Source: an uncultured archaeon | Lineage (GTDB): Archaea > Asgardarchaeota > Thorarchaeia > Thorarchaeales > Thorarchaeaceae | Reading direction: 5' to 3' | DNA: 19,184 nt | Assembly: GCA_964354495.1 (NCBI GenBank) | Contig: CAYHAA010000018.1 | Span: 1 to 19,184, forward strand | In this document: piece by piece, positions 3,462 through 18,636 of the stretch | Layout: each line of letters starts with the position of its first letter | How positions within the stretch are numbered: position 1 is the stretch's first letter | Program-made: the position numbers and the translations under genes | The notes under the pieces: model-generated | What the model was told of the DNA's origin: nothing | The model's database searches: none | What the model saw: the letters and a program-made list of their open reading frames with translations, nothing else

Positions 3462-3559
3462 CTTACCTGAGCTATTCGATGATTCCAGTAGTCTGCTCAG
3501 ACACACTTACCGCACTACCTACATGTATGCAGTGACAGTGAGGTTCGGAGAAGAAGGAG

Positions 3560-3587
3560 TGGTGCTGAGGGAGTGATTTGGTCTTCA
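3560..3587 (-). repeat. 3' fragment of host tRNA-Phe (att-like left boundary of the island)
   Basis: Minus strand reads TGAAGAC-CAAAT-CACTC-CCTCAGC-ACCA. The last 21 nt match the 3' end of the tRNA at 5176-5196 at 19/21. Followed by a C/T tract; composition shifts to AT-rich right of it. Confidence 0.88.
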
Positions 3588-4027
3588 TGTTAAGAAATTT
3601 GTAAGGCTGATTTTACAGTCCCTTCATAAACCGTGTTTTCGTTTTATATCATCAGAACAGTTTCTTGGTTCGTTATTGATACTCTCAGAGACTTTCCGGA
3701 TTGAGTGGAATTAGGGGAAGTAACAGAAATTGTTTCACCTTCAATAGTTGCTGTTTGTTTAATCCATGAGTTGCAAACAACGAATTGCAGCTCAAACATT
3801 GTACCACTTTCTAAAAGTCGAACGTAAATCTCAGAGAGTATTTTCTAGAAGTTCCACTACCAATACCTCAAGCATCTCCAAGTATGAGATTCCACTGACG
3901 GGGAGCCTTTCAATGGCAAGATTGACACTTCAACAACTAGAATGTCACTTGGTTGCAGTTGCAGATATCCTTGGTATATCCTTCTCAGACCAGAGCATGT
4001 TGAGAAGATTGTTGATATAGCGCTAGA

Positions 4028-4634
4028 CTAAAGCTTGCTGGGAGTCTGATTCTCTTTTTGGAGTTGGTTAATCCTATCTTGATTTATGAGTGATGCAATT
4101 CGAAAGAGAAGATAGATGCAAGTTACAAGAAGTAGCATGCCATCGATGAAAAGCCACACAATAATAGTAGTAAAATAGAATGGCAAACATACCAATACGA
4201 GAGCATTACACTTGTTAAGAATCTTAAACATTATTGGAAGATACTAACAAGAAAAACAATGCGATATCCATTCTTTTTGAGCACAAGCTTGTGAAAAAAG
4301 ATGAAGCTTCTACTAGAACAGCTGGGTTCGTTTCAATATTTGCCAACTCAAACTTCAGGTTTTCAAGTTCTCCTTTCTCCCTTACATCTTCCTGAAGCGT
4401 CTTGCCAGATATAGGAGCATGGCAATTCACACATCTATTTTCAGTAGCTGGGATGTCCATACCACATCTCCAACACTTGTCAGGCTCAATCCTTACGGAA
4501 ACTTCAATGTATTTCCCAAGAGCTGCAAGCTCAGCAACCTTTTGCGAGTCATCACCATATTGAAGATACCACTGTTCGAAGGTTCGACTATGTCTACTAT
4601 GACCTGGCCTCTGTCTGATTGCAGGATCTGGCAA
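4028..4634 (-). pseudogene. Decayed zinc-ribbon/membrane protein gene(s)
   Basis: ORF 4224-4634 has CWRC-x10-CVNC. The overlapping 4028-4231 ORF is two hydrophobic helices. No good start codon, and stops lie just upstream in all frames checked. Confidence 0.4.
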
Positions 4635-5014
4635 CTTACCAATTTTCTTCTAGTAGGTCGATGCTGATTTTCTGAAGAGTGTTGATCATACTCTCTTGCC
4701 TAGGTGTTTACCTATCTTTGACTGTGAGAGTATCTTCTCAAGACATCTGAGGTTATTCGAGTTTCTGAAGCGGTCTGAAACAACGGTCCTCTCCCTTGAT
4801 GTTGTACGTAATAAGGTGTGAAATACTTCAACCCGATCTCAGAGATTAAAACATAGGCATAAGAAACTCTACTCTTAAGAAACCTAACACTTCCTGTTTG
4901 AAAATCGATATAATTCAACAAAACTCCCTCACTTTTAGAGATGAGTTATCTCAACAAAGAGTGGCTTTTTCCCAAAGGGATATGCCCAAATATAGGAACA
5001 GGTTCCCGTATTGT

Positions 5015-5030
5015 CCACTATATTTAAAAA
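5015..5030 (+). promoter_or_regulatory. Promoter (TATA box) of the island tRNA-Phe
   Basis: CCACTATATTTAAAAA about 30-40 nt upstream of the tRNA; a similar motif precedes the host 5' half. Confidence 0.6.
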
Positions 5031-5057
5031 TGGAATATAAGTAACGGTGAAAACATC

Positions 5058-5196
5058 GCCGAGGTAGATTAGCCCGGGAGCGATTTTCTCTTTTCGAGAA
5101 GCTCCCCGTCATCGCGCGGCTGAAGACCGCGTTGTCGTCGGGCTCATCCTGTCGACACGGGATTCGTCGAGTGTTCGAATCACTCCCTCGGCACCA
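5058..5196 (+). tRNA. trnF-GAA: tRNA-Phe(GAA) with two non-canonical introns (22/23: 5081-5110; 43/44: 5132-5163)
   Basis: Acceptor GCCGAGG/CCTCGGC plus ACCA; D-stem GATT/GATC; anticodon arm CGCGG-CTGAAGA-CCGCG; T-arm GAGTG-TTCGAAT-CACTC. Removing the 30- and 32-nt BHB-bounded hairpins gives a 77-nt cloverleaf. Confidence 0.93.
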
Positions 5197-5202
5197 CTTT
5201 CC

Positions 5203-7155
5203 TTAATCTTGAACATGAAATCCCTCTGATGCTAATTGTATCTTCGATTGTTGAACGTCATTTTCATTCTGCTTTGATAACCAATCCAGGAGTACTTTTT
5301 CTTTAGTATCGAAGTTGGGTTTAATAATTAGTGCACTTCTAATCTTAGATTCATAACCACTAACTCTTGCCTCCCATCTAATACTTATCCTGTTAGATTT
5401 TTCGAAATATGATATACGCACAGGATTTAGGTTAATGTGGATTCCTAGACTTGTAGCTATTGCTTTTTCATCATCGATTAGTCTATTCCGATAATTAGAA
5501 ACCACGATGGATAACTCGTCAGCAATATTGGATATATGATTATCACTGTGATTCTTCAAAGAATTTAAACGACCGATTGGGATGTACTGCTCAGTAACGA
5601 TGCCTTGATATTTATGCATATGATTTGAATGCATTAGAAACTCAATTGCTTCTTGAGAAATCTTTGGTTTGAATCTAAGCAGAGGTCCTTTCTTGCTGTC
5701 AAATAGTGCATGAGATCTGGACCAATTAATTACGCCATTTTTATCAACACTGCCTTCTTGTGCAAGCATTTCTTGCATGTAGCCACACCTTGCTATTGAT
5801 GACCATAATCGAAATTCGTCAGGAAGACCATAATTGATGATAGTTCGATCACCCGATGGTATCCCCCAATAGTTCAATGCATGAGTAAGAGGGCTTGCAA
5901 TATAGAATTCATAGTTTCCAATCCTTTTACGCATAGATTCATTGCTGTAGGCAACACCAAAATTATCGATTATTTTCTTGATGCGATTAATGCGGTCAAA
6001 GCTCCCCTCTGTCAATTTCAAGCTTCCAGTTATAGGAATATGGCAATCACTTACAGCTATTCCGATAATGCGGGCTTTTAATACCTCTAGACTATCACTG
6101 GATGGGAATTTTGGATTGCGAATACCGCCCTGTCCATTAGCTCCCGATATTTTAGCGAATTTCCCTTCTAATTGGTTTATGGATAGTCCTACAATATCAC
6201 ATAACAAGTGTAGTGAAACTCCAAGGACTCGATGAGTGTCTTCAGAAATATATCTTGTATCCAATCCAGTTAGTTGCTTAGATAATTTACTGAGATGGGG
6301 AATTCCTGAAATCATTGGACCTACTTCTAATTGTGATGTTGCATCCTCAACTAGCCTAGTCAAATCGTTTTCATTATTGAAGTAGAAGTATAAATCTGCA
6401 TATGCTCTAAGCAGATTATTAGACTGCGTACTAGGAGTCCAAGTATAATGTCTTCCTTCTACATTACACATTCGAATATTTTTTGATGAATCGTCTGCTC
6501 TCTCATTATCTGCTTTTTCTAAAGTCTCATTGTTGATTGAAAAAACAAGATGAGGTCTTCCTCTATCACCTAATCCAAATCTGCTAATGGACTCACTGAT
6601 GTTTGTTTCATACAAGTCTGTTTTCTCAAGGGATTCCAACTGGCTAATCAAACTATCTTTCTTCTTTCCTTTAGCCCATCTGGACACAGTAGTTCGATGG
6701 ACGCCATGAGCTTTAGCAAATTCCCTATATCCTTCTGGCGTAGGTGGCATTTTTCGATTATCTAGAGCTTCAAACAAAGAACAATAGGTTACTGCATAGG
6801 TATATCGTTTATTGAAATTGGATGTCATTATTATTTTCCAATGTTTGTTTAGAGCAGCTATTAGCTTTTCATTAGAACGGATAATCCATCCTGGATACTT
6901 CTCCAGTGTGAAGTTGTGTTTTTTTGAAATCGGATCCGAAAACTCATGTTTTAAACAAGAATTTTCTGAGTCAACAAAATTACTTTCCGATTGTCTTGTT
7001 CTATCTTTATCTTCAGGAGCAATTCGATGTATGGAATATTCACTATTGTAATCACGAAAAGCCTTGTTTCGTTCTTCAATAGTCAGATACTGTTCCTCAT
7101 TGTCTTTCTTCTCAAGGTGAGGACTCTCATCCGAGAAATCATCAATCTCTCTCAT
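5203..7155 (-). CDS. Free-standing HTH plus double-motif LAGLIDADG (DOD/intein-type) endonuclease-like protein, ~650 aa
   Basis: HTH YREFAKAHGVHRTTVSRWAKG (~6669-6729). LAGLIDADG-like helices IIGIAVSDCHI (~6040-6069) and YMQEMLAQEGSV (~5747-5785). SD AGGAGGTG 9 nt before ATG 7155. Confidence 0.68.
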   Translation of the reverse strand: MREIDDFSDESPHLEKKDNEEQYLTIEERNKAFRDYNSEYSIHRIAPEDKDRTRQSESNFVDSENSCLKHEFSDPISKKHNFTLEKYPGWIIRSNEKLIAALNKHWKIIMTSNFNKRYTYAVTYCSLFEALDNRKMPPTPEGYREFAKAHGVHRTTVSRWAKGKKKDSLISQLESLEKTDLYETNISESISRFGLGDRGRPHLVFSINNETLEKADNERADDSSKNIRMCNVEGRHYTWTPSTQSNNLLRAYADLYFYFNNENDLTRLVEDATSQLEVGPMISGIPHLSKLSKQLTGLDTRYISEDTHRVLGVSLHLLCDIVGLSINQLEGKFAKISGANGQGGIRNPKFPSSDSLEVLKARIIGIAVSDCHIPITGSLKLTEGSFDRINRIKKIIDNFGVAYSNESMRKRIGNYEFYIASPLTHALNYWGIPSGDRTIINYGLPDEFRLWSSIARCGYMQEMLAQEGSVDKNGVINWSRSHALFDSKKGPLLRFKPKISQEAIEFLMHSNHMHKYQGIVTEQYIPIGRLNSLKNHSDNHISNIADELSIVVSNYRNRLIDDEKAIATSLGIHINLNPVRISYFEKSNRISIRWEARVSGYESKIRSALIIKPNFDTKEKVLLDWLSKQNENDVQQSKIQLASEGFHVQD

Positions 7156-7367
7156 GTTATGCAGCACCTCCTTTTCATGTCTTCAATAGCATTTGCGAAC
7201 TCAACGCTTAAGACCTCAACAGAATCTCCAAGATTGCCTGTTAGATCTGGAAACTCGGAAAAGAACATCGTATTATCCTTGACAATAGTCTGAGAATCAT
7301 TGTCGAGGGGATTACAAAACGTGCTATTGTATTGGCGATCATTAGTTCTGTTATGTGAATTTTGCAT
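7152..7367 (-). CDS. Small hypothetical ORF overlapping the start of the nuclease-like gene
   Basis: Short open frame whose 3' end contains the SD of the next gene; no recognisable motif. Confidence 0.25.
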   Translation of the reverse strand: MQNSHNRTNDRQYNSTFCNPLDNDSQTIVKDNTMFFSEFPDLTGNLGDSVEVLSVEFANAIEDMKRRCCIT

Positions 7368-7711
7368 AATGAATACCTCATTTCTATTCTATTTGGAAAA
7401 TACAGTGTTTAAGTGAAAAGTAGTAAGTTGTATGAGATACTCTTCTATGGGCTCAGGAGGCTATATCTCCCTCAAGTCGTTCCAGACTGTGTGGAAAAGT
7501 GACCATATGTTTCGCGCGGATTGCCAGAAAATGACCGATTGGATGATTAACAGTCGTTGAAATAGCCGTTCTTTTCCATGAATTTCGATGCTTTAGCCAA
7601 TTGGAGCACTCATTATTCTATTTACTAGCCAGAGATTCCCATGAGATAGTTAGAAAATTACCATTAATGACGAGTATAATAACCGACCTACAGACATAGT
7701 AATGAAATAGG

Positions 7712-9448
7712 ATGACATCTGACCTGCTAGATAGTGAGGCCCAAAAGGAGTATGTTCAAAATATCATTCTCAACAGAGGGCGCAAAGTTGACCTGTACCA
7801 ATATCTCAGAAAACATCCCGAAGAACTACTCAAGGGGGTTCTTGTTGCAGGATCAATAGGGTCTGGGAAGACACACCGTTCAATCAGTGTCATCCGTTCA
7901 GCTCTCGATTCGGGATATGGAGTATTGGTGTTCGACCCTTCCAATGATTATCAGAGATTATTGCACAGTTATGAGGCAGGTGTTGTCATTGATTTTAGTG
8001 AGTATTATCTGAACCCACTGGAGCCGTCACCAGGATTATCGCTCAAAGATTGGTCTTCAATCTTCATTCAGGTCTTTGCTCAAAACTTTGGACTGAAGGA
8101 TCCTTGAATAGCAATCCTTCAGGCATCGTTAAACAACCTAATAGTTAAGTCATATGACAACTATCCTACTCTTAGAGAGCTTCTTGAGGAGGTAATGCAA
8201 TACCTACCAATGTCACACTCATCAGAAACAAGTAGTCATGCTAGCGTACAGAACCGCTTAAAGAGTGTACTAGAATCTGAATGGGGGAGATGCCTTGATG
8301 TTCATCAGGGATATTCCCCTGTCGACTTTGAAGAAGGTCTCCTTGTAATCAAAATAAGGCCTGTAGGTATCGAACGGATACATGAGCTTGTTGTAGGTCT
8401 TACCGTTGCTGGAATATTCGCTTATAGGTCATGGAAACAGAATCGTGGCGAAGCACTGAGTAAGGATATCCTTATCGTCATTGAAGAAGCTCATAGATTT
8501 CTAAGCGAAGGACGGCAAGGTGACAGATATGGACAGATACTCTATCTTGAACGAGCACTTGTCGAATCTAGAAAGATCGGTGTAGGTTTTGTGATAATAG
8601 ACCAGATGCCAAACAGAATCAGCGACTATGTTCTTGGTAGCTGCAGTATGTGGATAGTATGCAAGCTTATAGTTCCAAATGCACGAAGATTGGCCGGTGA
8701 GGCGCTTAGGACGGATGTTGTCTAGAGTCATATTGGTCTTATGGAATTGCCAATTGGTGCAGCAATAATCAAAGTAGATAATCAACGCGAATTGGAAGAA
8801 ACAAGTCCAATGGTTCATGGAAACGAAAAACACCTCTACGATGTCAGAGGGTTGCCAGCCACTGTTGCCTTACCATCAAGCCCAGAAGAGTTACTTCCTT
8901 CAATGGAAAGCAGAGAAGTATGGGAGAAGATGGTACAGAATGAACGATACATGAGATATTTTGAACGTGTCATTATGCAAGACTATGAGCGAGTTGAGAA
9001 ATCACTTCGAGAAGATGAGAAAACAATGATTCGAAGATTCATATCTTGTACTCTGAAGAAAAATCACAGAGATGCAATTCTGGACACTGAAATGCAATCT
9101 GAGATTTCAAGGCTCATGGACAGATATCAAGGTGATGAGTTAAAGCAGCTTATTGGAATTCTGTCATCAAGTCTCAATATTGCAATACTAAATGAGGTAT
9201 TCACTTCTGATAAGGCAGACAGAGCTTCTCTTTCTAAATCTGCTTCCCGTTCATTAAGTTGGATTAGTCGAACACTAAAAATTATGCTTGAAGCAAAAAT
9301 CATCCAAGAGCAATCAGACCTATTTTTCATCACTGATAAGGGTAGAAGATTACTCCATTGGGGTGAGTTGGTAAGTAAAGAAAGTAGAAGCTTAGACATT
9401 TCCTCACTAGTGATTGAAACCGATACTAAGCAACTGACTGTATCCTGA
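7712..9448 (+). pseudogene. HerA/FtsK/VirB4-like (DUF87) ATPase with C-terminal winged helix, interrupted by two in-frame stops
   Basis: Walker A VAGSIGSGKT, VLVFDPSNDY, Walker B IVIEEAHRFL and ESRKIGVGFVIIDQMP motif. The three track ORFs share one frame, joined across TGA 8105-8107 and TAG 8723-8725. C-terminal wHTH SLSWISRTLKIMLEAKII...FFITDKG. Confidence 0.85.
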
Positions 9449-9453
9449 AGACG

Positions 9454-9957
9454 ATGTCAAAATATAGAATATCCCGTGAAAAGGAAACTATAGCTGGATG
9501 GAGAGGTTCTCAGGAAGATCTAGATGAGATCATTCGTACCGAATATCTTCTGCGATATTTTATGGAATAGAAAACTAAGGATTTTGAACCTTTACACCAA
9601 TTAGATATCAAACCATTTCGCGCATTGAAGATAGCTCTGGAAAGTGGGATTTTATCTTCATTACTGACCAATGATCATTTCATTTTCCTTGAACATCTAA
9701 TCAAGTTATCAAACCTTGGAGAGCGAAGTAATATACGACAACTTAGGCTATTGGAGCATCATAGAATAGTGAAAGGATTTTGGAATGAAGGCAGAAAGAG
9801 TGTGCGACTAAATCAGACCTGGAAACTAATGTTGGCTCATCTTGTTTCCAGTATCATGTTTAAATCAATTGTTCCTGTAGATTTACTTCACAAAGCTCAT
9901 CGGTTAGCAAAGGATTATTCAATCCGTGAACAATTGCAGATGTTTCACAGATCTTAA
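9454..9957 (+). pseudogene. Small winged-helix-like protein with one in-frame TAG (9568-9570)
   Basis: ATG 9454, 5 nt after the ATPase stop, is in frame with track ORF 9625-9957. LIKLSNLGERSNIRQLRLLEHHRIVKG...RKSVRL resembles an ArsR/MarR-type wHTH. Confidence 0.6.
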
Positions 9958-9961
9958 TGCA
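9850..9961 (+). repeat. 112-bp direct repeat, copy 1 (3' end of the wHTH gene)
   Basis: 101/112 identical to 13611-13722, with no indels. Confidence 0.95.
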
Positions 9962-10561
9962 CCTTTTGCGCTCTTCCTTACAGCACATTATTACTTCTTC
10001 TCAAAAAGATATGCACGAATATCTCCATCATCTATTAGTGGAAACCAACAGACTACTGCTACAGACAATAACTCCATGCCTACATATCCCTATGTTAATT
10101 GTGTGGACAGTATGCCAAGGATACGCCCCACAGACCTGTCATCGGTGCTGGGAGCGAAGAAGGAGAGTAGAGAATTAGACTTCCTCCATCGAGCGAGAGG
10201 GTGATGAGTACTTCCAGTGCTTCAAGCATGAGATGTACTTCCACGTCGATATCATCACAGCACGAAACATCACTCATGCTCATGGCTCGATTCTACCGTT
10301 CCCGGAAGGACAATGGAAGTATATTCAAGTCTGTCCAACTTATAGTGAACAATAGAATGCTGTTGATTTGTTTCTGTAGAAGCTGAGGGTGGGGACAAAA
10401 AGAGAGTACCATGAGCGCTGTCTGAAACTCAGAAACAACACTGAGCAGTCTTCAGCTCTTCAAATATGAGCAACTCAAGAGTTGTTCTTCTGATCTCAAT
10501 CATGAGATAGTGAAGCTTTATTAGAAATAATGAATAACGCTCAATCGAGGGATTTCGGCCG

Positions 10562-12919
10562 ATGGGGATGTATTCATCCTATACGTGCAATTCAAAGTTG
10601 AAGATATTGCTTTTTTGGTTGACTGTAAGTGTTCTTATGTTTGTACCGAATGCTGCTCATGCAGAACCTGTTGATACTTTGCAGGACACAGTTGGACCAA
10701 GAGCATGTATACGATACTTTGAAAACTTCACGCTCTGTATTGGGGTAGAGATTCTAAATACATGGTCTAACTCTATTGAAATAACTGAGAATCTTACTCT
10801 TCCTAGGAGTTATCAGGACAGATTTGATGACAACTCAACTGAAACAGAGAATCCATATTTCATTCAGGGAGTCAAAGGAATTGTTGGTAATTGTTCATAC
10901 ATTCCAGGGAGTCAATCAAGAGTGTCAGTATTCCGTTTCTCAATCAATGGCTCTTTTGCAGAGAGTGAGTACTACAATCTTGAGCTGAAATGGGGATTGA
11001 CACCCGCTACTGAAGATACTCTCCAACCAATGCCCAGGTATACACAGAGGTTCAATGTCACACCTTTTGATTGGATTGATCAGGATACAATGTTGCCAAA
11101 AGCAATAGAATGTGAAGGAGGAGAGATAGATTCCACTTACGACCTGAGAATCACCTCGATAGTTCTTCCTGACTCATCAATATGCAAGGGAGATTCTGTT
11201 CTCGTCTATGTCACTGTTCATAACTATGGTTCTTGCAGTCTGAAGGCGTTTTTGAATGCAAGAATCAAGGAGGACAGCGGACTCTATATTGGCTTTGATC
11301 AGGGAGTATGGTCATATTATGGGAACGGAGTGGACATGATCTTTTATGTCTCTCCAGGATATACATATACCTATTATTTTGCATTTGGACCTGTCCTCTA
11401 TGATGACAATAGAGGTATCTGGGCTCTAAATGGGAGAATCGATGCAAGCAGTTATCAGACGGTCTCTCTCTGGTATAAGGTGTACCAGATGAGACTTCGA
11501 GGTTATGCTTCGGGATTTCAAACAACTTTTGACTACTACTGCAGTGAAAGCTTCTATGTCATTCAGAACACTGGGACTCGACGGATATTGGCTGCAGTTG
11601 TTGACGACGAATCTTGTTGGACAAACCCTGCTATGTTCTATGAATCGGTAGTTGATTTTGAAATTCGCATTGGTGAGGGTTGGACCCTTGGTCCGTACAC
11701 AACATTCGAACAAGAATTCGATGTTGATATTCAATTCTTTGATGTTGGTTCGTATGACTGGCTTGATGGTGCCTTAGGACAAGCAAGTGCAGCTGAAGCG
11801 CTTCGAAATTCTGAATATGCACTTGGACAAGGACTGAAACTTGGAGGCAATTGGGTTTCTATATTCGTTATCAATCCTGATACTGAAGACTACAGTTATT
11901 GTTACACTCAACGTGAGAATCATGGATTTGACATTGGTGTCGGACTCCTGCCAGCTGGATATTATTTGCACAGCGGTGAGGGAAACTCTGTTTTCTTAGG
12001 ATCCTCCTGTGTTACAATGGGTGCATATCTACCCGATTATTTCAGGGTCATGGAGTGTGCTCTACATGAACTGTGTCATCTGTTTGGCGCTCTACATGGA
12101 GATCAGTACGGACCGGATTCATTCGGTCCAGATAAAGATGGATATACATATGTAATGGCTGGAGGAACCGGTCGGGATTTATCTCCATGGGTAGGATGGA
12201 GGATGCATACCCTGACAGCACAGAAGATCAATGAGAACAATCATCTGAGGAAGTTTGATGGAGCTCCTGCCCCGGAGTATACGTCTGGAAAGTGGTATGG
12301 ACAGATTGAGTGTCATGTGGTGATGAATGCTAATCATTATGGTGAACCAGTGTACAGACTGGACTCTGATGGATTGTATCATTGGGGTTATAACAGTCAG
12401 AACTACAAACGGTTCTCAGTGACAGATAGTTTCGTATCTGGAATAGAACAGAGTGGGCGGGTTCTAAGCTCAAAGGAGATAGATGCAGAGGTTTCGTATC
12501 CTAATCCGGGGATGGGTTGCTTCTATGCTGCCTACAAGCTCTACTGGAGTTCCAGTCATTGGCCAACTGGATTCTCTCCCAGTCAAGGCATCAAACTGTA
12601 TGTTGTATACTGGTCATGGCAAGATAGTGATACTACATCCTCATCTGTTGATAATGTCATAATGGTAATAATATCATCCAGATCCTCTACTCCATCTCAG
12701 TACTACTCAGCATCCTTTGAGGCTGCTTCTCCAACAGGTGGTTGGAAATACTGTCACAATCAATGGGTTATTCAGGATGACATGAAAGACATCAACCTCA
12801 CAGATTCCACAGTCTATCTTCTACTAGGTTTCCGTGATGCTTGGTCTGCAGACTATCATCAGAAACTTAAGGTGCATCCAATCTGGATTCTATTCGCATA
12901 TACATGGAACAGTTGGTGA
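10562..12919 (+). CDS. Secreted multidomain zinc metalloprotease (metzincin) with a CARDB/Ig-like domain
   Basis: Signal peptide ILLFWLTVSVLMFVPNAAHA; CARDB-like DLRITSIVLP...VYVTVHNYG; HELCHLFGALH (HExxHxxGxxH) followed by a Met-turn-like YVMA. Confidence 0.8.
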   Translation: MGMYSSYTCNSKLKILLFWLTVSVLMFVPNAAHAEPVDTLQDTVGPRACIRYFENFTLCIGVEILNTWSNSIEITENLTLPRSYQDRFDDNSTETENPYFIQGVKGIVGNCSYIPGSQSRVSVFRFSINGSFAESEYYNLELKWGLTPATEDTLQPMPRYTQRFNVTPFDWIDQDTMLPKAIECEGGEIDSTYDLRITSIVLPDSSICKGDSVLVYVTVHNYGSCSLKAFLNARIKEDSGLYIGFDQGVWSYYGNGVDMIFYVSPGYTYTYYFAFGPVLYDDNRGIWALNGRIDASSYQTVSLWYKVYQMRLRGYASGFQTTFDYYCSESFYVIQNTGTRRILAAVVDDESCWTNPAMFYESVVDFEIRIGEGWTLGPYTTFEQEFDVDIQFFDVGSYDWLDGALGQASAAEALRNSEYALGQGLKLGGNWVSIFVINPDTEDYSYCYTQRENHGFDIGVGLLPAGYYLHSGEGNSVFLGSSCVTMGAYLPDYFRVMECALHELCHLFGALHGDQYGPDSFGPDKDGYTYVMAGGTGRDLSPWVGWRMHTLTAQKINENNHLRKFDGAPAPEYTSGKWYGQIECHVVMNANHYGEPVYRLDSDGLYHWGYNSQNYKRFSVTDSFVSGIEQSGRVLSSKEIDAEVSYPNPGMGCFYAAYKLYWSSSHWPTGFSPSQGIKLYVVYWSWQDSDTTSSSVDNVIMVIISSRSSTPSQYYSASFEAASPTGGWKYCHNQWVIQDDMKDINLTDSTVYLLLGFRDAWSADYHQKLKVHPIWILFAYTWNSW

Positions 12920-13494
12920 GGAGAGTGATGAAGGCAATGCAGAGATATTTCACTTTTGTTGTGGTTGTTGCAACAATATGCTCTCTTCTATACATATCAC
13001 CAGTATCTGGACATGGTCATCATTTCGACTTGGGCTATCTCCAGTCAAACTTTCAGGATGACACCATCTTTGGTAACTATACCTATACGTACCCTAATTA
13101 TTACCCGTGGCCTGTGTTAGTCTATATTGATGTGCAAGATTCAGATGGGGTGGATTCCGTATGGTTGAGTTATCAACGCGAGAATGAGACCTTAGTATTG
13201 AATCAGTCTATGAGTAGAACTGTTCTTGGTAGCGGTAACAGATATGTTGGTGACTTTAGGGCTAATGTCAGTCAGACTGTAACCAAGTTCATAGTCCACT
13301 TCCATGCCAATGATACTCTTGGTCATCAGACGTCATCGATTGAATACTCGCTGATTGTTTACTATAACCCTCCTGATACACTTCCGAACGAAGACTACGG
13401 TCTACAGTTTATAATAGGGCTGTCAATTGCATTAGTGAGTGTAGTGGGACTCTTCTATTCTTGGAGAAAAGGTCGAGGTAGATCAGATGAGTAG
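12904..13494 (+). CDS. Surface protein with signal peptide, Ig-like domain and C-terminal TM anchor
   Basis: N-terminal hydrophobic segment, beta-rich middle with N-x-T/S sequons, C-terminal FIIGLSIALVSVVGLFYSW plus basic tail RKGRGR. Overlaps the protease gene by 16 nt. Confidence 0.78.
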   Translation: MEQLVRRVMKAMQRYFTFVVVVATICSLLYISPVSGHGHHFDLGYLQSNFQDDTIFGNYTYTYPNYYPWPVLVYIDVQDSDGVDSVWLSYQRENETLVLNQSMSRTVLGSGNRYVGDFRANVSQTVTKFIVHFHANDTLGHQTSSIEYSLIVYYNPPDTLPNEDYGLQFIIGLSIALVSVVGLFYSWRKGRGRSDE

Positions 13495-13610
13495 CTAATC
13501 AGATGTCATGTGTCGGATATGACTGATCATCTCTAGTTTTTCTCACCCCATCTCTCTACTAATCTGTTGGGAATGATGATTGAGGGGATCTAATATAGAA
13601 GAGAACCCCT

Positions 13611-13722
13611 AGTACCAGATTTGAATCAATTATTCCTGTAGATTTACTTCACAAAGCTCATCGTTTAGCAAAGGATTATTCAATCCGTGAACAATTACAA
13701 ATGTTTTGCAGACCTTAATGCA
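13611..13722 (+). repeat. 112-bp direct repeat, copy 2 (orphan 3' fragment of a wHTH paralog)
   Basis: Same frame ends at the same TAA (IPVDLLHKAHRLAKDYSIREQLQMFCRP*). No homology upstream of 13611. Confidence 0.95.
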
Positions 13723-13813
13723 ACCATACAGCGGTATGTAATTGTGTTCAAACTCTATTGAAAATTTGGAATACAAAATAAAAAGCATCTGTAGGATAAT
13801 TCATAGAACGAAA

Positions 13814-13845
13814 TCTTCAGATCTCCCAGGCTAATCTACCTCAGC
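13814..13845 (-). repeat. 5' fragment of host tRNA-Phe lacking the 22/23 intron (att-like right boundary of the island)
   Basis: Minus strand reads GCTGAGG-TA-GATT-AGCCTGGGA-GATC-TGAAGA. This is 24/26 identical to the spliced 5' end of the 5058 tRNA, followed directly by the anticodon-loop core. Confidence 0.9.
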
Positions 13846-13878
13846 AATGCCTGTATTTTGTCTTCCGCTGATTTTGTG

Positions 13879-13893
13879 ATATAAAGATAGTGG
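13879..13893 (-). promoter_or_regulatory. Promoter of the disrupted host tRNA-Phe
   Basis: CCACTATCTTTATAT 35-48 nt upstream of the 5' half, resembling CCACTATATTTAAAA before the island tRNA. Confidence 0.55.
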
Positions 13894-13903
13894 CAATGTG
13901 CGA

Positions 13904-14377
13904 CTATGCCAGTTTCTTCACGGCCATCTCGACCTCTTCAAATGGAGGAAGTTTCCCAGGGTCATCACTGACCCAGCAGTACACGACGGTTCTGTCCACA
14001 TCCACCACAAAGACCGACCGTTTTGCGACTTTGGTCATGCCTGCAAGGTCCTTGTGTACTATTCCATAGCTCTTGATTGTGGTCTTCTCCCAATCAGAGA
14101 GCAATGGAAACTGGATACCGTTGCTCTTCTTGAACGCAGCATGACTAAATATCCCATCGACGGAGATTCCCAAGACATTTGCGCCAAGCTCATTATAGCT
14201 CGTCAGAACATCCCTGAATTGACAGAGCTCCTTCTGGCATACCGAGCTGAAGTCTGCAGGGTAGAAGACAAGCACCACTGGACCTTTCTTGAGTTCTTCG
14301 CTCAGCGTCACACTCTTGCCAGGTGCCTCCCAGAGGGTGAAGTCTGGGGCTTCACTTCCAACAGTCAGTTTCGTCAA
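13904..14377 (-). CDS. Peroxiredoxin (AhpC/TSA family, BCP/AhpE-like)
   Basis: VGSEAPDFTL...VVLVFYPADFSSVCQKELC...GISVD...LLSDW...RSVFVVD; PxxxS/TxxC active site with CxxxxC. Confidence 0.93.
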   Translation of the reverse strand: MTKLTVGSEAPDFTLWEAPGKSVTLSEELKKGPVVLVFYPADFSSVCQKELCQFRDVLTSYNELGANVLGISVDGIFSHAAFKKSNGIQFPLLSDWEKTTIKSYGIVHKDLAGMTKVAKRSVFVVDVDRTVVYCWVSDDPGKLPPFEEVEMAVKKLA

Positions 14378-16144: not shown

Positions 16145-16284
16145 GGGCCGGTAGATTAGCCCGGTAGTCACTGCGAATTGTCGCAGTGGCCAGGAGAGAT
16201 CGCTTCCTTGGCATGGAAGAGGTCGCGAAACTCTGTGAATCTAGTTTTCACGGAGCGCGAGTTCAAATTTCGCCCGGTCCACCA
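16145..16284 (+). tRNA. trnA-GGC: tRNA-Ala(GGC) with two non-canonical introns (D-arm ~16167/8-16195/8; 53/54: 16230-16261)
   Basis: Acceptor GGGCCGG/CCGGTCC with the G3:U70 Ala identity pair plus ACCA; anticodon arm CTTCC-TTGGCAT-GGAAG. Textbook BHB (CGCG/CGCG helix, 9-bp inner stem) for the T-arm intron. Confidence 0.93.
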
Positions 16285-16363
16285 CACTCTTTTTCCACGA
16301 AGAGGAAGACTTACGCTAATGGACATCATATTAAGGTGGCAGGCAAATCGAAAAGCGAGCAGA

Positions 16364-17047
16364 ATGAAGATACTTGCATTCAATGCCAGTCCTCGAAAAT
16401 CTCAGGGTACTACTGACATACTAATGGAGGCTTTCATTGATGGAGCAAGGAAAGCTAATGCTGAGGTTGAGAAGCACTACATCGTTGATCTGGACATAAA
16501 AGGATGCTTGGGTTGTTTCACTTGCTGGTGGAAGACCCCTGGCAAGTGTGTTCATAGAGACGATATGGACTGGATTCTCCCTAGCATCATTGAAGCGGAC
16601 ATATTGCTCCTTGGTACGCCCGTCTATGGTCGCAACATAACACATTACATGCAGCGACTGCTTGAACGTACATTCTCATTGACTCTTCCAGAGATGCAAA
16701 TCAGAGATGGAGAGACCACTCATCCCGTCAGACCACACAGGTCTCTGCATTTAGTCCTGTGTGCCACTTGTGGATTTCCGGATGTCAGCAACTTCAATCA
16801 CATAAGAGCTCTGTATCCAACAGCAGTACACATCCTACTGCCTTCGGCTCAGATTCTTCTCAATGACAATGGCAGAGAGCATCTTTCCGATTTTCTAGAG
16901 GCCACGAGCCTGACGGGGCAAAAAATGGCTGATGGAGAGGAAATTCCAGCGTCTCTGGCTGATAGATTAGTATTTGAGTATTCAGATGAGATGAAGAAGA
17001 ATATCATCGAAGCCCACAATCAGTATAGCGCATCTCGAATTGAATAA
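16364..17047 (+). CDS. Iron-sulfur flavoprotein / flavodoxin-like NAD(P)H-dependent FMN reductase
   Basis: MKILAFNASPRKSQGTT flavodoxin start, CLGCFTCW...GKC Cys motif, LLGTPVY. The track's 16178 start overlaps the tRNA and is rejected. Confidence 0.9.
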   Translation: MKILAFNASPRKSQGTTDILMEAFIDGARKANAEVEKHYIVDLDIKGCLGCFTCWWKTPGKCVHRDDMDWILPSIIEADILLLGTPVYGRNITHYMQRLLERTFSLTLPEMQIRDGETTHPVRPHRSLHLVLCATCGFPDVSNFNHIRALYPTAVHILLPSAQILLNDNGREHLSDFLEATSLTGQKMADGEEIPASLADRLVFEYSDEMKKNIIEAHNQYSASRIE

Positions 17048-17129
17048 CTGACTACAGTAGCTCTTTTGCATATTCATCAGACAAGCACGCACAATGGATG
17101 TATTATTCTAAAACGATTTCACATTTCAT

Positions 17130-17155
17130 GAGTTCAAATCTCGACCGGTCCACCA
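17130..17155 (+). repeat. tRNA-Ala 3'-end copy 1 (att-like)
   Basis: GAGTTCAAATCTCGACCGGTCCACCA, 24/26 identical to 16259-16284. Confidence 0.9.
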
Positions 17156-17292
17156 CTTCTTCTTGTATCGTCGCACCAAGCCTATATACTAGTCGAATAT
17201 CATTCTATCAGAAGCTCCTTCATACTCGAATGAAGTAAAGTGGGAAAACCTGCATCACGAGCACGGCGGATTAGAGGATGTGAGCTGACTCG

Positions 17293-18420
17293 ATGGTAGA
17301 CCAAGAAACTTGGGAGCGTGTTGTGCTCCAGAAACTCGAATTGCCAAATGGCATGATTGCATCAAACCGAATTATGCGGGCTGCCACTTGGATGGGTCAG
17401 GCGGAAGAGAATGGAGTATGCGGGGAGGCAATCATCGAAACTTATGGCAAAATCCAAGCAGGCGTCGTGGTAACCGGTTTTCAATATGTAATGTATGAAG
17501 GACAGACGATTAAGCGCATGATCTCTAATTCAAAGGCAAGCGATGTTGAAGGTCTGAAACGCCTTGCTGGGGCAATTCATGCTTCAGGTGGTCTGGCAGC
17601 AGCTCAATTGGTTCATTGCGGGAGCAAGAGCTTGCCAAAATTGACAGGCAACGATGTAGCGTTTGGACCCAGTGATATGGAGATTCCTCAACCTAAGGGG
17701 GATGTTGTTCGAGTAAAGGCTATGACAGTGGACCATGTAGAAAGAGTCGCTCAGGCGTATGCTGACGCAGCCAAACGTGCAGTTGAAGCCGGATTTGATG
17801 TGATTGAACTACATGGAGCTCATAATTATGGGCTTTGGCAATTCTTTGACCCATCGTTCAATAGACGCCCAGTGGAAGACCCATATACCGGAGTAACAAT
17901 CGAAGGACGTTGTAAGGCGATGGTGGATGCTGTAAGAGCTGTGAAGAATGCGGTTGATATTCCCATTCAGGTGAAGGTGGACTCAAGCTCGAAAATGGTC
18001 AGACCCGAGGAAGTAGGTGAGTTGACAAAGAGGCTTGCTGAAGCGGGGGCATATTGCGTTATATTCAGTGGGCCCAACCCAAGTCAGAACCCGAAGGATG
18101 TAGGTGAGGCGTATTTCTTGGATGACGCAACGATTATCCGTTCGATAGCTCATGACAGTGGTCTCTTGTTCGGATTGGTAGGTGGAATCCGGTCGCCGGA
18201 AACTGTTGTTAAGCTACTGACAGGGAACGGAATTTCAAAGGCTGCTTTCGATGTGATTCAGCTTAGTCGCCCATTGATTAGTGAACCCGCGCTTTTGCAC
18301 CGTTGGACTGAAGAAGCGAAGATCAGTAAACAGGAACCTGCTCGATGCATTTCTTGTAACCGTTGTTTTGCAGCAGGGCTTAGAGGAAAGGTAGAATGCG
18401 TTCAGTTTGAGGGAGAGTGA
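17293..18420 (+). CDS. NADH:flavin oxidoreductase / Old Yellow Enzyme family protein
   Basis: NRIMRAAT, AAQLVHCG, GFDVIELHGAHNYGLWQFFDP..NRR, VGGIRS, LSRPLISEP, and C-terminal CISCNRC...C cluster motif. Confidence 0.92.
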   Translation: MVDQETWERVVLQKLELPNGMIASNRIMRAATWMGQAEENGVCGEAIIETYGKIQAGVVVTGFQYVMYEGQTIKRMISNSKASDVEGLKRLAGAIHASGGLAAAQLVHCGSKSLPKLTGNDVAFGPSDMEIPQPKGDVVRVKAMTVDHVERVAQAYADAAKRAVEAGFDVIELHGAHNYGLWQFFDPSFNRRPVEDPYTGVTIEGRCKAMVDAVRAVKNAVDIPIQVKVDSSSKMVRPEEVGELTKRLAEAGAYCVIFSGPNPSQNPKDVGEAYFLDDATIIRSIAHDSGLLFGLVGGIRSPETVVKLLTGNGISKAAFDVIQLSRPLISEPALLHRWTEEAKISKQEPARCISCNRCFAAGLRGKVECVQFEGE

Positions 18421-18527
18421 TATTCCGAGCTAGCGGAGAACAAGATTCCCATCAGGGAACTAGGATATTCTAACAAGCATGACTATTGAGACCTGAACTC
18501 AGATGAGGGCCAAGAGAGCACATATGC

Positions 18528-18548
18528 CAAATCACGCCCGGTCCACCA
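18528..18548 (+). repeat. tRNA-Ala 3'-end copy 2 (att-like)
   Basis: CAAATCACGCCCGGTCCACCA, 19/21 identical to the tRNA 3' end. Confidence 0.88.
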
Positions 18549-18636
18549 TTTCCTTCTCTATCGAATCTCTATGTTACACGAGAAGTAGTTCAAAGGAACT
18601 GCATTGCCATATCAGCACGAGAAATCTGTCATCCTT

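Follow-up and report, generated by a model that had tools for sequence, protein, structure and literature searches.

Several described systems resemble in part the locus that is the subject of this report. In fungal mitochondria, the so-called mORFs consist of a LAGLIDADG open reading frame (ORF) together with a replacement terminus for the host gene, the native terminus being left about 1 kb downstream as an unexpressed duplicate; they are found in atp6 of Allomyces macrogynus and in atp6, atp9, cox2 and nad3 of Glomus, and their mobility has been attributed to cutting of ORF-less alleles (PMC3630166). In the collaborative homing of phages, a free-standing endonuclease targets the insertion site of an intron (PMC3984707). 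The nearest archaeal precedent is the tRNA-Thr(GGU) gene of Caldiarchaeum subterraneum, where, in a natural population, a tRNA fragment lies beside an intron-richer full gene with a 1.8-kb putative mobile element between them, and the authors, who invoke a recombinase-bearing element, propose that intron gain and scattering of fragments followed its integration (Sugahara et al. 2012, PMC3293823). T4 SegB is a free-standing GIY-YIG endonuclease in a phage tRNA gene cluster (PMC13096335). Here we report on P0001, a protein gene that converges on a tRNA-Phe(GAA) gene in a stretch of 19,184 nucleotides (nt) from an uncultured archaeon of the Thorarchaeaceae; this stretch, hereafter called the window, is contig C18:1-19184 of a 3.3-Mb metagenome-assembled genome (MAG; G000) that is 97.7% complete.

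We read P0001, with a probability of about 0.62, as a free-standing single-chain LAGLIDADG homing endonuclease; the genes of its family form small, mORF-like cassettes within the 3' portion of tRNA genes, and the cassette of P0001 would be copied into cut, cassette-free tRNA-Phe genes. It is the mORF design taken together with the logic of collaborative homing that leads us to regard P0001 as an enzyme cutting cassette-free tRNA-Phe near the T-arm. In the proposed mechanism, the enzyme would cut cassette-free tRNA-Phe genes in or near the T-arm, and repair from a cassette-bearing copy would then copy the cassette in. The rebuilt tRNA would escape re-cutting, its target being interrupted by an intron in the T-loop or the variable region, or being altered, as may apply to G57 in the T-loop of the window gene.

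As in mORFs, a LAGLIDADG ORF is inserted together with a replacement 3' terminus, the native terminus is displaced, and the proximal and native copies of the terminus differ in sequence. Unlike in mORFs, the host is a tRNA gene of an Asgard archaeon and not a mitochondrial protein gene, the ORF lies on the opposite strand and is not fused to the host gene, and the replacement end often carries a bulge-helix-bulge (BHB) intron; in the window, moreover, the nuclease travels with a whole tRNA gene and its own promoter, inverted relative to two remnants (stubs) of another tRNA-Phe allele. The likeness to collaborative homing, with which trans-homing by T4 mobE (PMC2790892) can be grouped, lies in a free-standing nuclease gene adjoining an intron-containing gene and in a proposed target at the intron position, where the intron would give immunity and be co-inherited. 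In our case we infer the coincidence of target and intron from the insertion junctions, and, unlike in phages, the intron is a BHB tRNA intron spliced by proteins and not a self-splicing group I intron, and the nuclease is of the LAGLIDADG family. The archaeal single-chain enzymes I-DmoI, I-Tsp061I and PI-PfuI, which belong to rRNA introns or inteins, share only 13-19% identity with P0001 and give no significant sequence match, and P0001 differs from them also in standing free, outside an intron or intein, and in about 350 extra N-terminal residues, which hold a putative helix-turn-helix (HTH) and a domain with a GANGxGGIxNPxFP loop. Unlike in the C. subterraneum locus, the LAGLIDADG nuclease gene is the only gene of the minimal cassette and the 3' end of the tRNA is duplicated. 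With T4 SegB, the common point is the linkage of a free-standing homing endonuclease to tRNA genes, and our locus differs in its nuclease family, its non-phage setting and its rebuilt tRNA end with a stub. No account of LAGLIDADG cassettes in tRNA genes came up in literature searches on LAGLIDADG and free-standing homing endonucleases, on tRNA genes and their introns, and on Asgard archaea and Thorarchaeota.

P0001 and the adjoining tRNA-Phe gene

An earlier note on this DNA, made from the letters alone, had pointed to an intact ORF of about 650 amino acids (aa) that converges on a tRNA gene and stops 6 nt past its CCA, and this description holds (coordinates are collected in Table 1). The frame is open up to a GTG at 7167 (5203..7167(-), 654 codons); the ATG is the likely start, judging from a GGAGGTG 10 nt upstream and from agreement with the database copy P0002. 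The ratio of nonsynonymous to synonymous substitution rates (dN/dS) against homologs is 0.15-0.21, and 0.09-0.15 in the core, and P0001 is under purifying selection.

Searches with the P0001 sequence in Pfam, NCBIfam and PDB, the last both with the single protein and with a profile, gave only weak HTH signals. The HTH read in the earlier note is weakly supported, by a Pfam signal in the N-terminal region with weak E values. An AlphaFold2 model made with a 69-sequence alignment reaches a predicted local distance difference test score (pLDDT) of 93.8 for residues 215-654, and the N-terminal residues 88-360 model poorly (pLDDT 57). The top Foldseek matches of the model in PDB are PI-PfuI, I-Tsp061I, I-DmoI, PI-SceI and an intein endonuclease domain, and relatives in AFDB match with template modelling (TM) scores of 0.87-0.91, some of them being auto-annotated as DOD-type homing endonucleases. 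The predicted fold is that of a LAGLIDADG protein, with two alpha-beta-beta-alpha-beta-beta-alpha domains packed via both LAGLIDADG helices. The two helices with acidic residues at the catalytic positions (SD and QE) that had been noticed in the letters are found in this model; helix 1 ends in ..AVSD374 and helix 2 in ..AQE471G, and both positions are conserved family-wide. The acid at the end of helix 1 is kept in 68 of 69 family sequences; at position 471, 51 of the 69 have D and the other 18 have E, and the next residue, G472, is kept in 64.

The tRNA-Phe gene was missed by standard ARAGORN and by Rfam at its gathering threshold, neither of which found a tRNA in the window, and ARAGORN with the intron search (-i) gives the bounds listed in Table 1. 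When the two introns are removed at the sites that the earlier note had proposed, a 77-nt sequence is obtained, which ARAGORN calls tRNA-Phe. Since this spliced sequence differs by only one D-loop base from the intron-less gene of a relative (G002), the first intron can be placed at 22/23. The T-loop is TTCGAAT, with G57, and holds no intron. A second intact tRNA-Phe was not found in G000, where this gene is the sole intact copy found.

Cassettes in related genomes

A whole-library HMMER search gave at least 264 clusters at 50% identity, whose members share the C-terminal approximately 430 residues and vary in their N-termini; the named homologs of P0001 are all from Candidatus Thorarchaeota. 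The family is present in 12 of the 24 genomes of the genus with up to seven copies each; in G000 the number is five or six, and three of these copies lie at the end of a contig. No member was found in G006, G017 and G002, the closest relatives of the window by flank identity. Homologs with 50-75% identity, on metagenomic and MAG contigs, occupy the same chromosomal place in the order of the nuclease gene, a convergent tRNA-Phe whose CCA is 6-7 nt off, and then the genes for a 172-aa protein and a methyltransferase; PadR-HAAS lies upstream of the syntenic homolog in one case. Because homologs recur at this syntenic tRNA-Phe locus, the pair of P0001 and tRNA-Phe is a recurrent feature and not an exotic import, and the earlier view of the pair as a special feature of an island gives way to that of an element which the genus shows repeatedly at its tRNA-Phe locus.

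The linkage to tRNA genes extends to the family. All homologs of the tRNA-Phe clade end 6-7 nt from the CCA, and a convergent tRNA or tRNA stub lies at or within about 1.1 kb of the stop in 24 of 36 sampled loci (within about 0.6 kb in 21). The tRNA scans demanded a T-arm as well, a bare acceptor-stem/CCA scan being far too unspecific. The linked tRNAs include Phe, Asn-like multi-intron, initiator-type, Asp, Lys and others. Since the LAGLIDADG fold is present and the homologs are strongly tRNA-linked, neither a missing fold nor a missing linkage speaks against the idea from which this analysis started. Nine changes of tRNA label suffice on a core-domain tree, vs a mean of 18.9 with shuffled labels, and not one of 200 shuffles gets down to nine. 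Monophyly is highly supported for the Phe clade and likewise for the Asn-like and the initiator clade, and nine basal members form a clade in which no neighbouring tRNA was seen. Part of this clustering by tRNA identity comes from vertical descent at syntenic sites.

In the Phe clade, the nuclease gene lies between two direct copies of the final 24 nt of the tRNA (G53 to CCA), with a spacing of 1813 nt in locus L012, 2051 in L013, 2154 in L009 and 2185 in L014; the unit of L008 is larger, and further units free of a nuclease lie behind it in L008 and L009. L030, at another tRNA, has the same bracketed structure with a spacing of 1665 nt. When L008 is compared with the nuclease-free locus L053, a 6.5-kb insertion is seen between flanks that are 92-93% identical, the alignments overlapping at T-loop nt 54-58, and L014 compared with L053 has a 2.2-kb insertion at the same T-loop point. 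The insertion junction in the relatives lies in the T-loop at nt 53-58, and presence or absence of the insertion is polymorphic at one site; 21 nuclease-free tRNA-Phe loci keep the 5' synteny. The canonical cassette combines a replacement tRNA 3' end, which usually holds a 30-nt T-loop intron, with a spacer of 6-7 nt, an oppositely oriented endonuclease gene and some 0.3 kb of upstream sequence, and the original 3' end (G53 to CCA, intron-less) is displaced downstream as a stub. Judging from the bracketing repeats and the filled and empty sites, a single gene with a spare tRNA 3' end makes up the minimal, probably mobile unit. The arrangement that defines mORFs, a nuclease ORF between two host 3' termini of which the proximal one is working, is present in L008, L009, L012, L013, L014 and L030; the window itself has only a 21-nt stub, inverted, rather than bracketing 3'-end repeats. 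No direct repeat of a tRNA 3' end turned up in the fetched DNA around members of the Asn-like clade, at tRNA-Asp and at L036, where short loci and long genes make this a negative for the fetched stretches only. What had been taken as destruction of the host allele is, as regards the 3' stub, a normal by-product of this type of cassette.

Introns are distributed unevenly among these alleles, which come from related and non-independent genomes. Six of the seven nuclease-linked tRNA-Phe alleles have a T-loop intron of about 30 nt, in three sequence types and at slightly different positions, the exception being the window, whose gene has D-arm and variable-region introns and the G57 T-loop. Among the 21 nuclease-free tRNA-Phe alleles, 12 are without an intron, six have only a variable-region intron and three have a T-loop intron, and the displaced stubs are all intron-less. 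Over all clades, a T-loop intron is present in approximately 16 of 20 nuclease-linked tRNAs vs approximately 11 of 41 tRNA-like genes of G000. The T-loop intron site (58/59) of the relatives is next to their cassette junction (nt 53-58), and the window allele is without that intron. The module of a nuclease and a protected tRNA, which the earlier note had suggested, fits the relatives as an idea, but the intron linked to the nuclease there is the T-loop intron, which is absent from the window tRNA, whose introns at 22/23 and 43/44 have a conjectural shielding role.

We also add several observations on tRNA genes. About 11 tRNA genes of G000 have a 29-30-nt intron at T-loop 58/59 with similar ...GGAACAA 3' ends (C1:103075-103192, C6:89040-89176 and C18:38527-38728 are examples), and only C3:34293-34513 and C36:1190-1328 are near a family member. 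The tRNA-Phe T-stem in loci L040-L069 has five co-varying versions within one genus (GTGTG/CACAC, GTGTG/CACGC, GCCGG/CCGGC, CGCGG/CCGCG and GAGTG/CACTC), the rest of the tRNA varying little; this diversity could come from pressure to escape a nuclease that reads the T-arm. 5' stubs of tRNA-Phe (nt 1 to about 47, broken in the variable region) are found in L051/L066 (G007:C38), L063/L069 (G009:C145) and L048 (G010:C168), with the full gene following 0.13-1.1 kb downstream except in G010, where the stub stands by itself; they form a mirror-image class of insertion that replaces the 5' part of the tRNA, and their break coincides with the site of the variable-region intron. At C5:88752-90682 of G000, ARAGORN -i calls a tRNA-Lys with an 1836-nt intron; the call may be false, or an insertion may have divided the tRNA.

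The native allele and the island of the window

In the window, the second tRNA-Phe allele at the native position survives as two stubs, which delimit an island of low GC content. The 5' stub reads GGGAGATC contiguously and has no D-arm intron, in agreement with the earlier observation that the broken host allele lacks the first intron. The ancestral promoter and the syntenic flank (AhpC, the 172-aa gene and the methyltransferase gene) precede the 5' stub, as they precede tRNA-Phe throughout the genus, and the 3' stub is 137 nt from a PadR-HAAS gene pair. The acceptor halves of the stubs co-vary (GCTGAGG/CCTCAGC vs GCCGAGG/CCTCGGC in the intact gene), and because the T3:A70 pair is common to both stubs, where the intact gene has C3:G70, the stubs come from one former gene. 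Nucleotides 26-55 of the native allele, including the anticodon stem, are absent from both.

Table 1. Features of the P0001 locus and of the surrounding island (window coordinates)
Feature	Position	Strand	Remarks
P0001, gene for HTH, conserved middle domain and double-LAGLIDADG endonuclease	5203..7155	-	650 aa from ATG 7155
Double LAGLIDADG core	5266..6099	-	residues 357-634
Catalytic-position codons	D374 = 6046-6048; E471 = 5755-5757	-	helix ends
Conserved middle domain, family-wide	6100..6525	-	residues 215-356, invariant GANGxGGIxNPxFP loop
Putative HTH, clade-specific N-terminal region	6661..6732	-	residues 146-169, weak Pfam signal (E 0.03-0.06)
tRNA-Phe(GAA), intact, encoded CCA	5058-5196	+	exons 5058-5080, 5111-5131, 5164-5196
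tRNA-Phe intron 1	5081-5110	+	30 nt, 22/23 (after nt 22)
tRNA-Phe intron 2	5132-5163	+	32 nt, 43/44 or equally 44/45
Spacer CTTTCC, from tRNA CCA to complement of P0001 TAA	5197..5202		6 nt
5' stub of second (native-position) tRNA-Phe allele	13845..13820	-	nt 1-25, then TGAAGA
3' stub of same native-position allele	3580..3560	-	T-loop CAAAT through CCA, preceded by TGAAGAC
Low-GC island between stubs	3581..13819		about 10.2 kb, GC 0.37-0.44 vs 0.46-0.52 in flanks

The fall in GC content spans about 3500 to 14000. Within the island, the module of tRNA-Phe and P0001 is inverted relative to the stubs and is accompanied by about 6.6 kb of decaying cargo, comprising a HerA-like ATPase pseudogene and genes for a 785-aa HExxH protein and a 196-aa membrane protein. 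The decay of the neighbouring genes, already remarked on in the letters, is evident in the HerA/DUF87-like ATPase and winged-helix gene (7712-9448 (+)), one 578-codon frame broken by the stops TGA (8105-8107) and TAG (8723-8725); it looks like a recently inactivated island gene, and recoding was dropped as an explanation, since two unlike stop codons interrupt the frame. Four independent soil metagenomes yielded contigs, 88-99% alike, in which both island junctions are found again, and therefore the arrangement is real and common to related strains; for the same reason, misassembly at short inverted repeats was rejected. One soil-metagenome contig has 145 nt in place of 3579-4797, a segment that is thus an indel among strains.

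The earlier note had supposed that no integrase was involved, and our searches agree: no recombinase domain was found in island ORFs of at least 80 aa (shorter or badly decayed remnants being beyond this search), and no match to PF00589 (Phage_integrase) at E<=0.01 was found anywhere in G000, vs matches in 14 of 14 control genomes. The island is thus without a detected integrase gene of the kind expected for tRNA-integrating elements, whether of the SSV/pNOB8 type or with another tyrosine recombinase. Inverted repeats of 27 nt are present at 5054-5080 and 13823-13849, and inversion of the block between them would bring back the canonical order, which may suggest how the window arrangement arose. 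The module could work in either orientation, as the tRNA gene in it is complete and has a promoter of its own.

Some further features of the island and of comparable loci are worth recording. The sequence TGAAGA, which occurs in the anticodon loop, adjoins both stubs (3581-3588 and 13814-13819, - strand); its interpretation as an anticodon-loop att core, as a target-site duplication or as a trace of microhomology joining is unsupported, each needing extra deletions. The 785-aa HExxH protein is secreted and has a metzincin-like motif, and a 112-nt direct repeat (90% identical, 9850-9961 and 13611-13722) flanks the genes of this protein and the 196-aa membrane protein. A geometry as odd as that of the window is seen in L074 (G004:C69), where an inverted tRNA-Asp 3' stub (8628-8652 (-)) lies 1.3 kb upstream of tRNA-Asp (9949-10056 (+)), which adjoins the gene for a 1197-aa family member (10075-13668 (-)); no tRNA-Asp 5' stub was found beyond the nuclease gene in L074. 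Another tRNA gene of the window, tRNA-Ala(GGC), has two introns and forms an array (16145-18550 (+)) with the copies of its 3' end that follow it at 17117-17156 and 18528-18550. Elsewhere, on C22 and C24, G000 encodes two serine recombinases of 201 aa.

Competing explanations and significance

Several points weigh against the reading of P0001 as a homing endonuclease that inserts its own cassette. The protein is below every Pfam LAGLIDADG threshold, with no match to LAGLIDADG_1/2/3, and PF14528 is weakly matched by 11 of the 69 relatives, at best with E 0.0013 and under the gathering score. The inverted orientation in the window and the loss of nt 26-55 differ from what simple homing predicts. 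T-loop introns are common in G000 without a nearby nuclease and occur also in three nuclease-free tRNA-Phe alleles, and the window tRNA has no such intron and shares its G57 T-loop with the nuclease-free G002. A site-specific crossover 3' of a pre-existing intron would also yield an intron-bearing proximal copy and an intron-less stub, and the counts of introns and of linkage, being taken from related genomes, overstate the significance.

In the main rival explanation, some trans-acting site-specific system, integron-like or tycheposon-like and with an attachment site from T-loop to CCA, moves the cassettes, the LAGLIDADG protein being a passenger that hitch-hikes or stabilises the cassette by cutting cassette-free copies. 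Repeats of the tRNA-Ala 3' end in the window bound one-gene units (an FMN reductase and an old yellow enzyme (OYE) oxidoreductase) that have no nuclease gene; related-strain contigs join 16164 straight to 18528 or hold an intron-less middle with a TGC anticodon, and these units vary within populations. Since such nuclease-free cassettes have the same type of repeat, a trans-acting system could move all cassettes, and this again speaks against insertion by P0001 itself. The further arrays with nuclease-free distal units in L008 and L009 fit this alternative, as do the two small serine recombinases of G000, and a crossover in nt 59-76 would be enough to keep the intron in the working copy of the tRNA and to give a stub without it. 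However, no tyrosine recombinase was found in the genome, nor in or near the cassettes, the nuclease gene is alone in the minimal cassettes, and the unit beside the working tRNA is always the nuclease unit at a fixed 6-7 nt. The clades also track tRNA identity, as a target-specific enzyme predicts, although vertical descent could yield this pattern as well. On balance we regard a passenger role as rather unlikely.

A role without cutting, in which P0001 would be a domesticated DNA-binding protein of LAGLIDADG fold, such as a WhiA-like regulator or a tRNA-gene-associated factor, and its adjacency to tRNA-Phe a conserved arrangement, appears improbable to us. The extra HTH and the large conserved non-nuclease domain, the synteny of the locus across the genus, the purifying selection and the nine members of the basal subclade without a tRNA neighbour would suit such a protein. 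However, the family retains both acidic positions that are lost in WhiA-type proteins, one in 68 and the other in all of 69 sequences, the HTH is N-terminal and not C-terminal, and, instead of a single conserved copy, the family shows a patchy distribution with several copies per genome; half of the genus genomes, G006, G017 and G002 among them, are without the gene, its copies occur at contig ends, and the filled and empty sites mark it as an insertion. Still more remote is an RNA-acting, maturase-like helper in the splicing or processing of the adjacent multi-intron pre-tRNA. Cutting of BHB introns falls to the splicing endonuclease and calls for no maturase, most intron-bearing tRNAs of G000 have no family member nearby, and the duplicated tRNA ends of the cassette are a phenomenon at the DNA level.

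The reading of P0001 as a homing endonuclease can be extended, only tentatively and with considerable doubt, to the proposal that the family, by cutting tRNA T-arms, drives the insertion of single-gene cassette arrays behind tRNA genes in cis and in trans, and that it spreads and selects for non-canonical BHB introns (T-loop, variable region and D-arm) as marks of immunity in Asgard archaea and perhaps in other archaea. If this were true, the many introns and the fragmentation of tRNA genes would record an arms race between these genes and the homing endonucleases that target them.

In some archaeal lineages, 92-95% of tRNA genes are intron-bearing (PMC11291895), and our finding bears on the question why archaeal, above all Asgard, tRNA genes hold many introns at odd positions, and also on the origin of tRNA fragments and split tRNAs (PMC3293823). 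It offers a concrete candidate agent, a large family of free-standing LAGLIDADG proteins whose genes are lodged in tRNA genes, preferentially those in which an intron adjoins the insertion point, and rebuild the tRNA end and leave stubs behind. The family is, in addition, a new and diverse source of predicted long-target endonucleases whose targets, tRNA genes, are predictable. For the organism of the window, the cell now depends on the tRNA-Phe travelling with the nuclease, and this tie of its only tRNA-Phe to a selfish nuclease is a form of addiction; the cassette may help to explain the introns and the leftover fragments of these tRNA genes.

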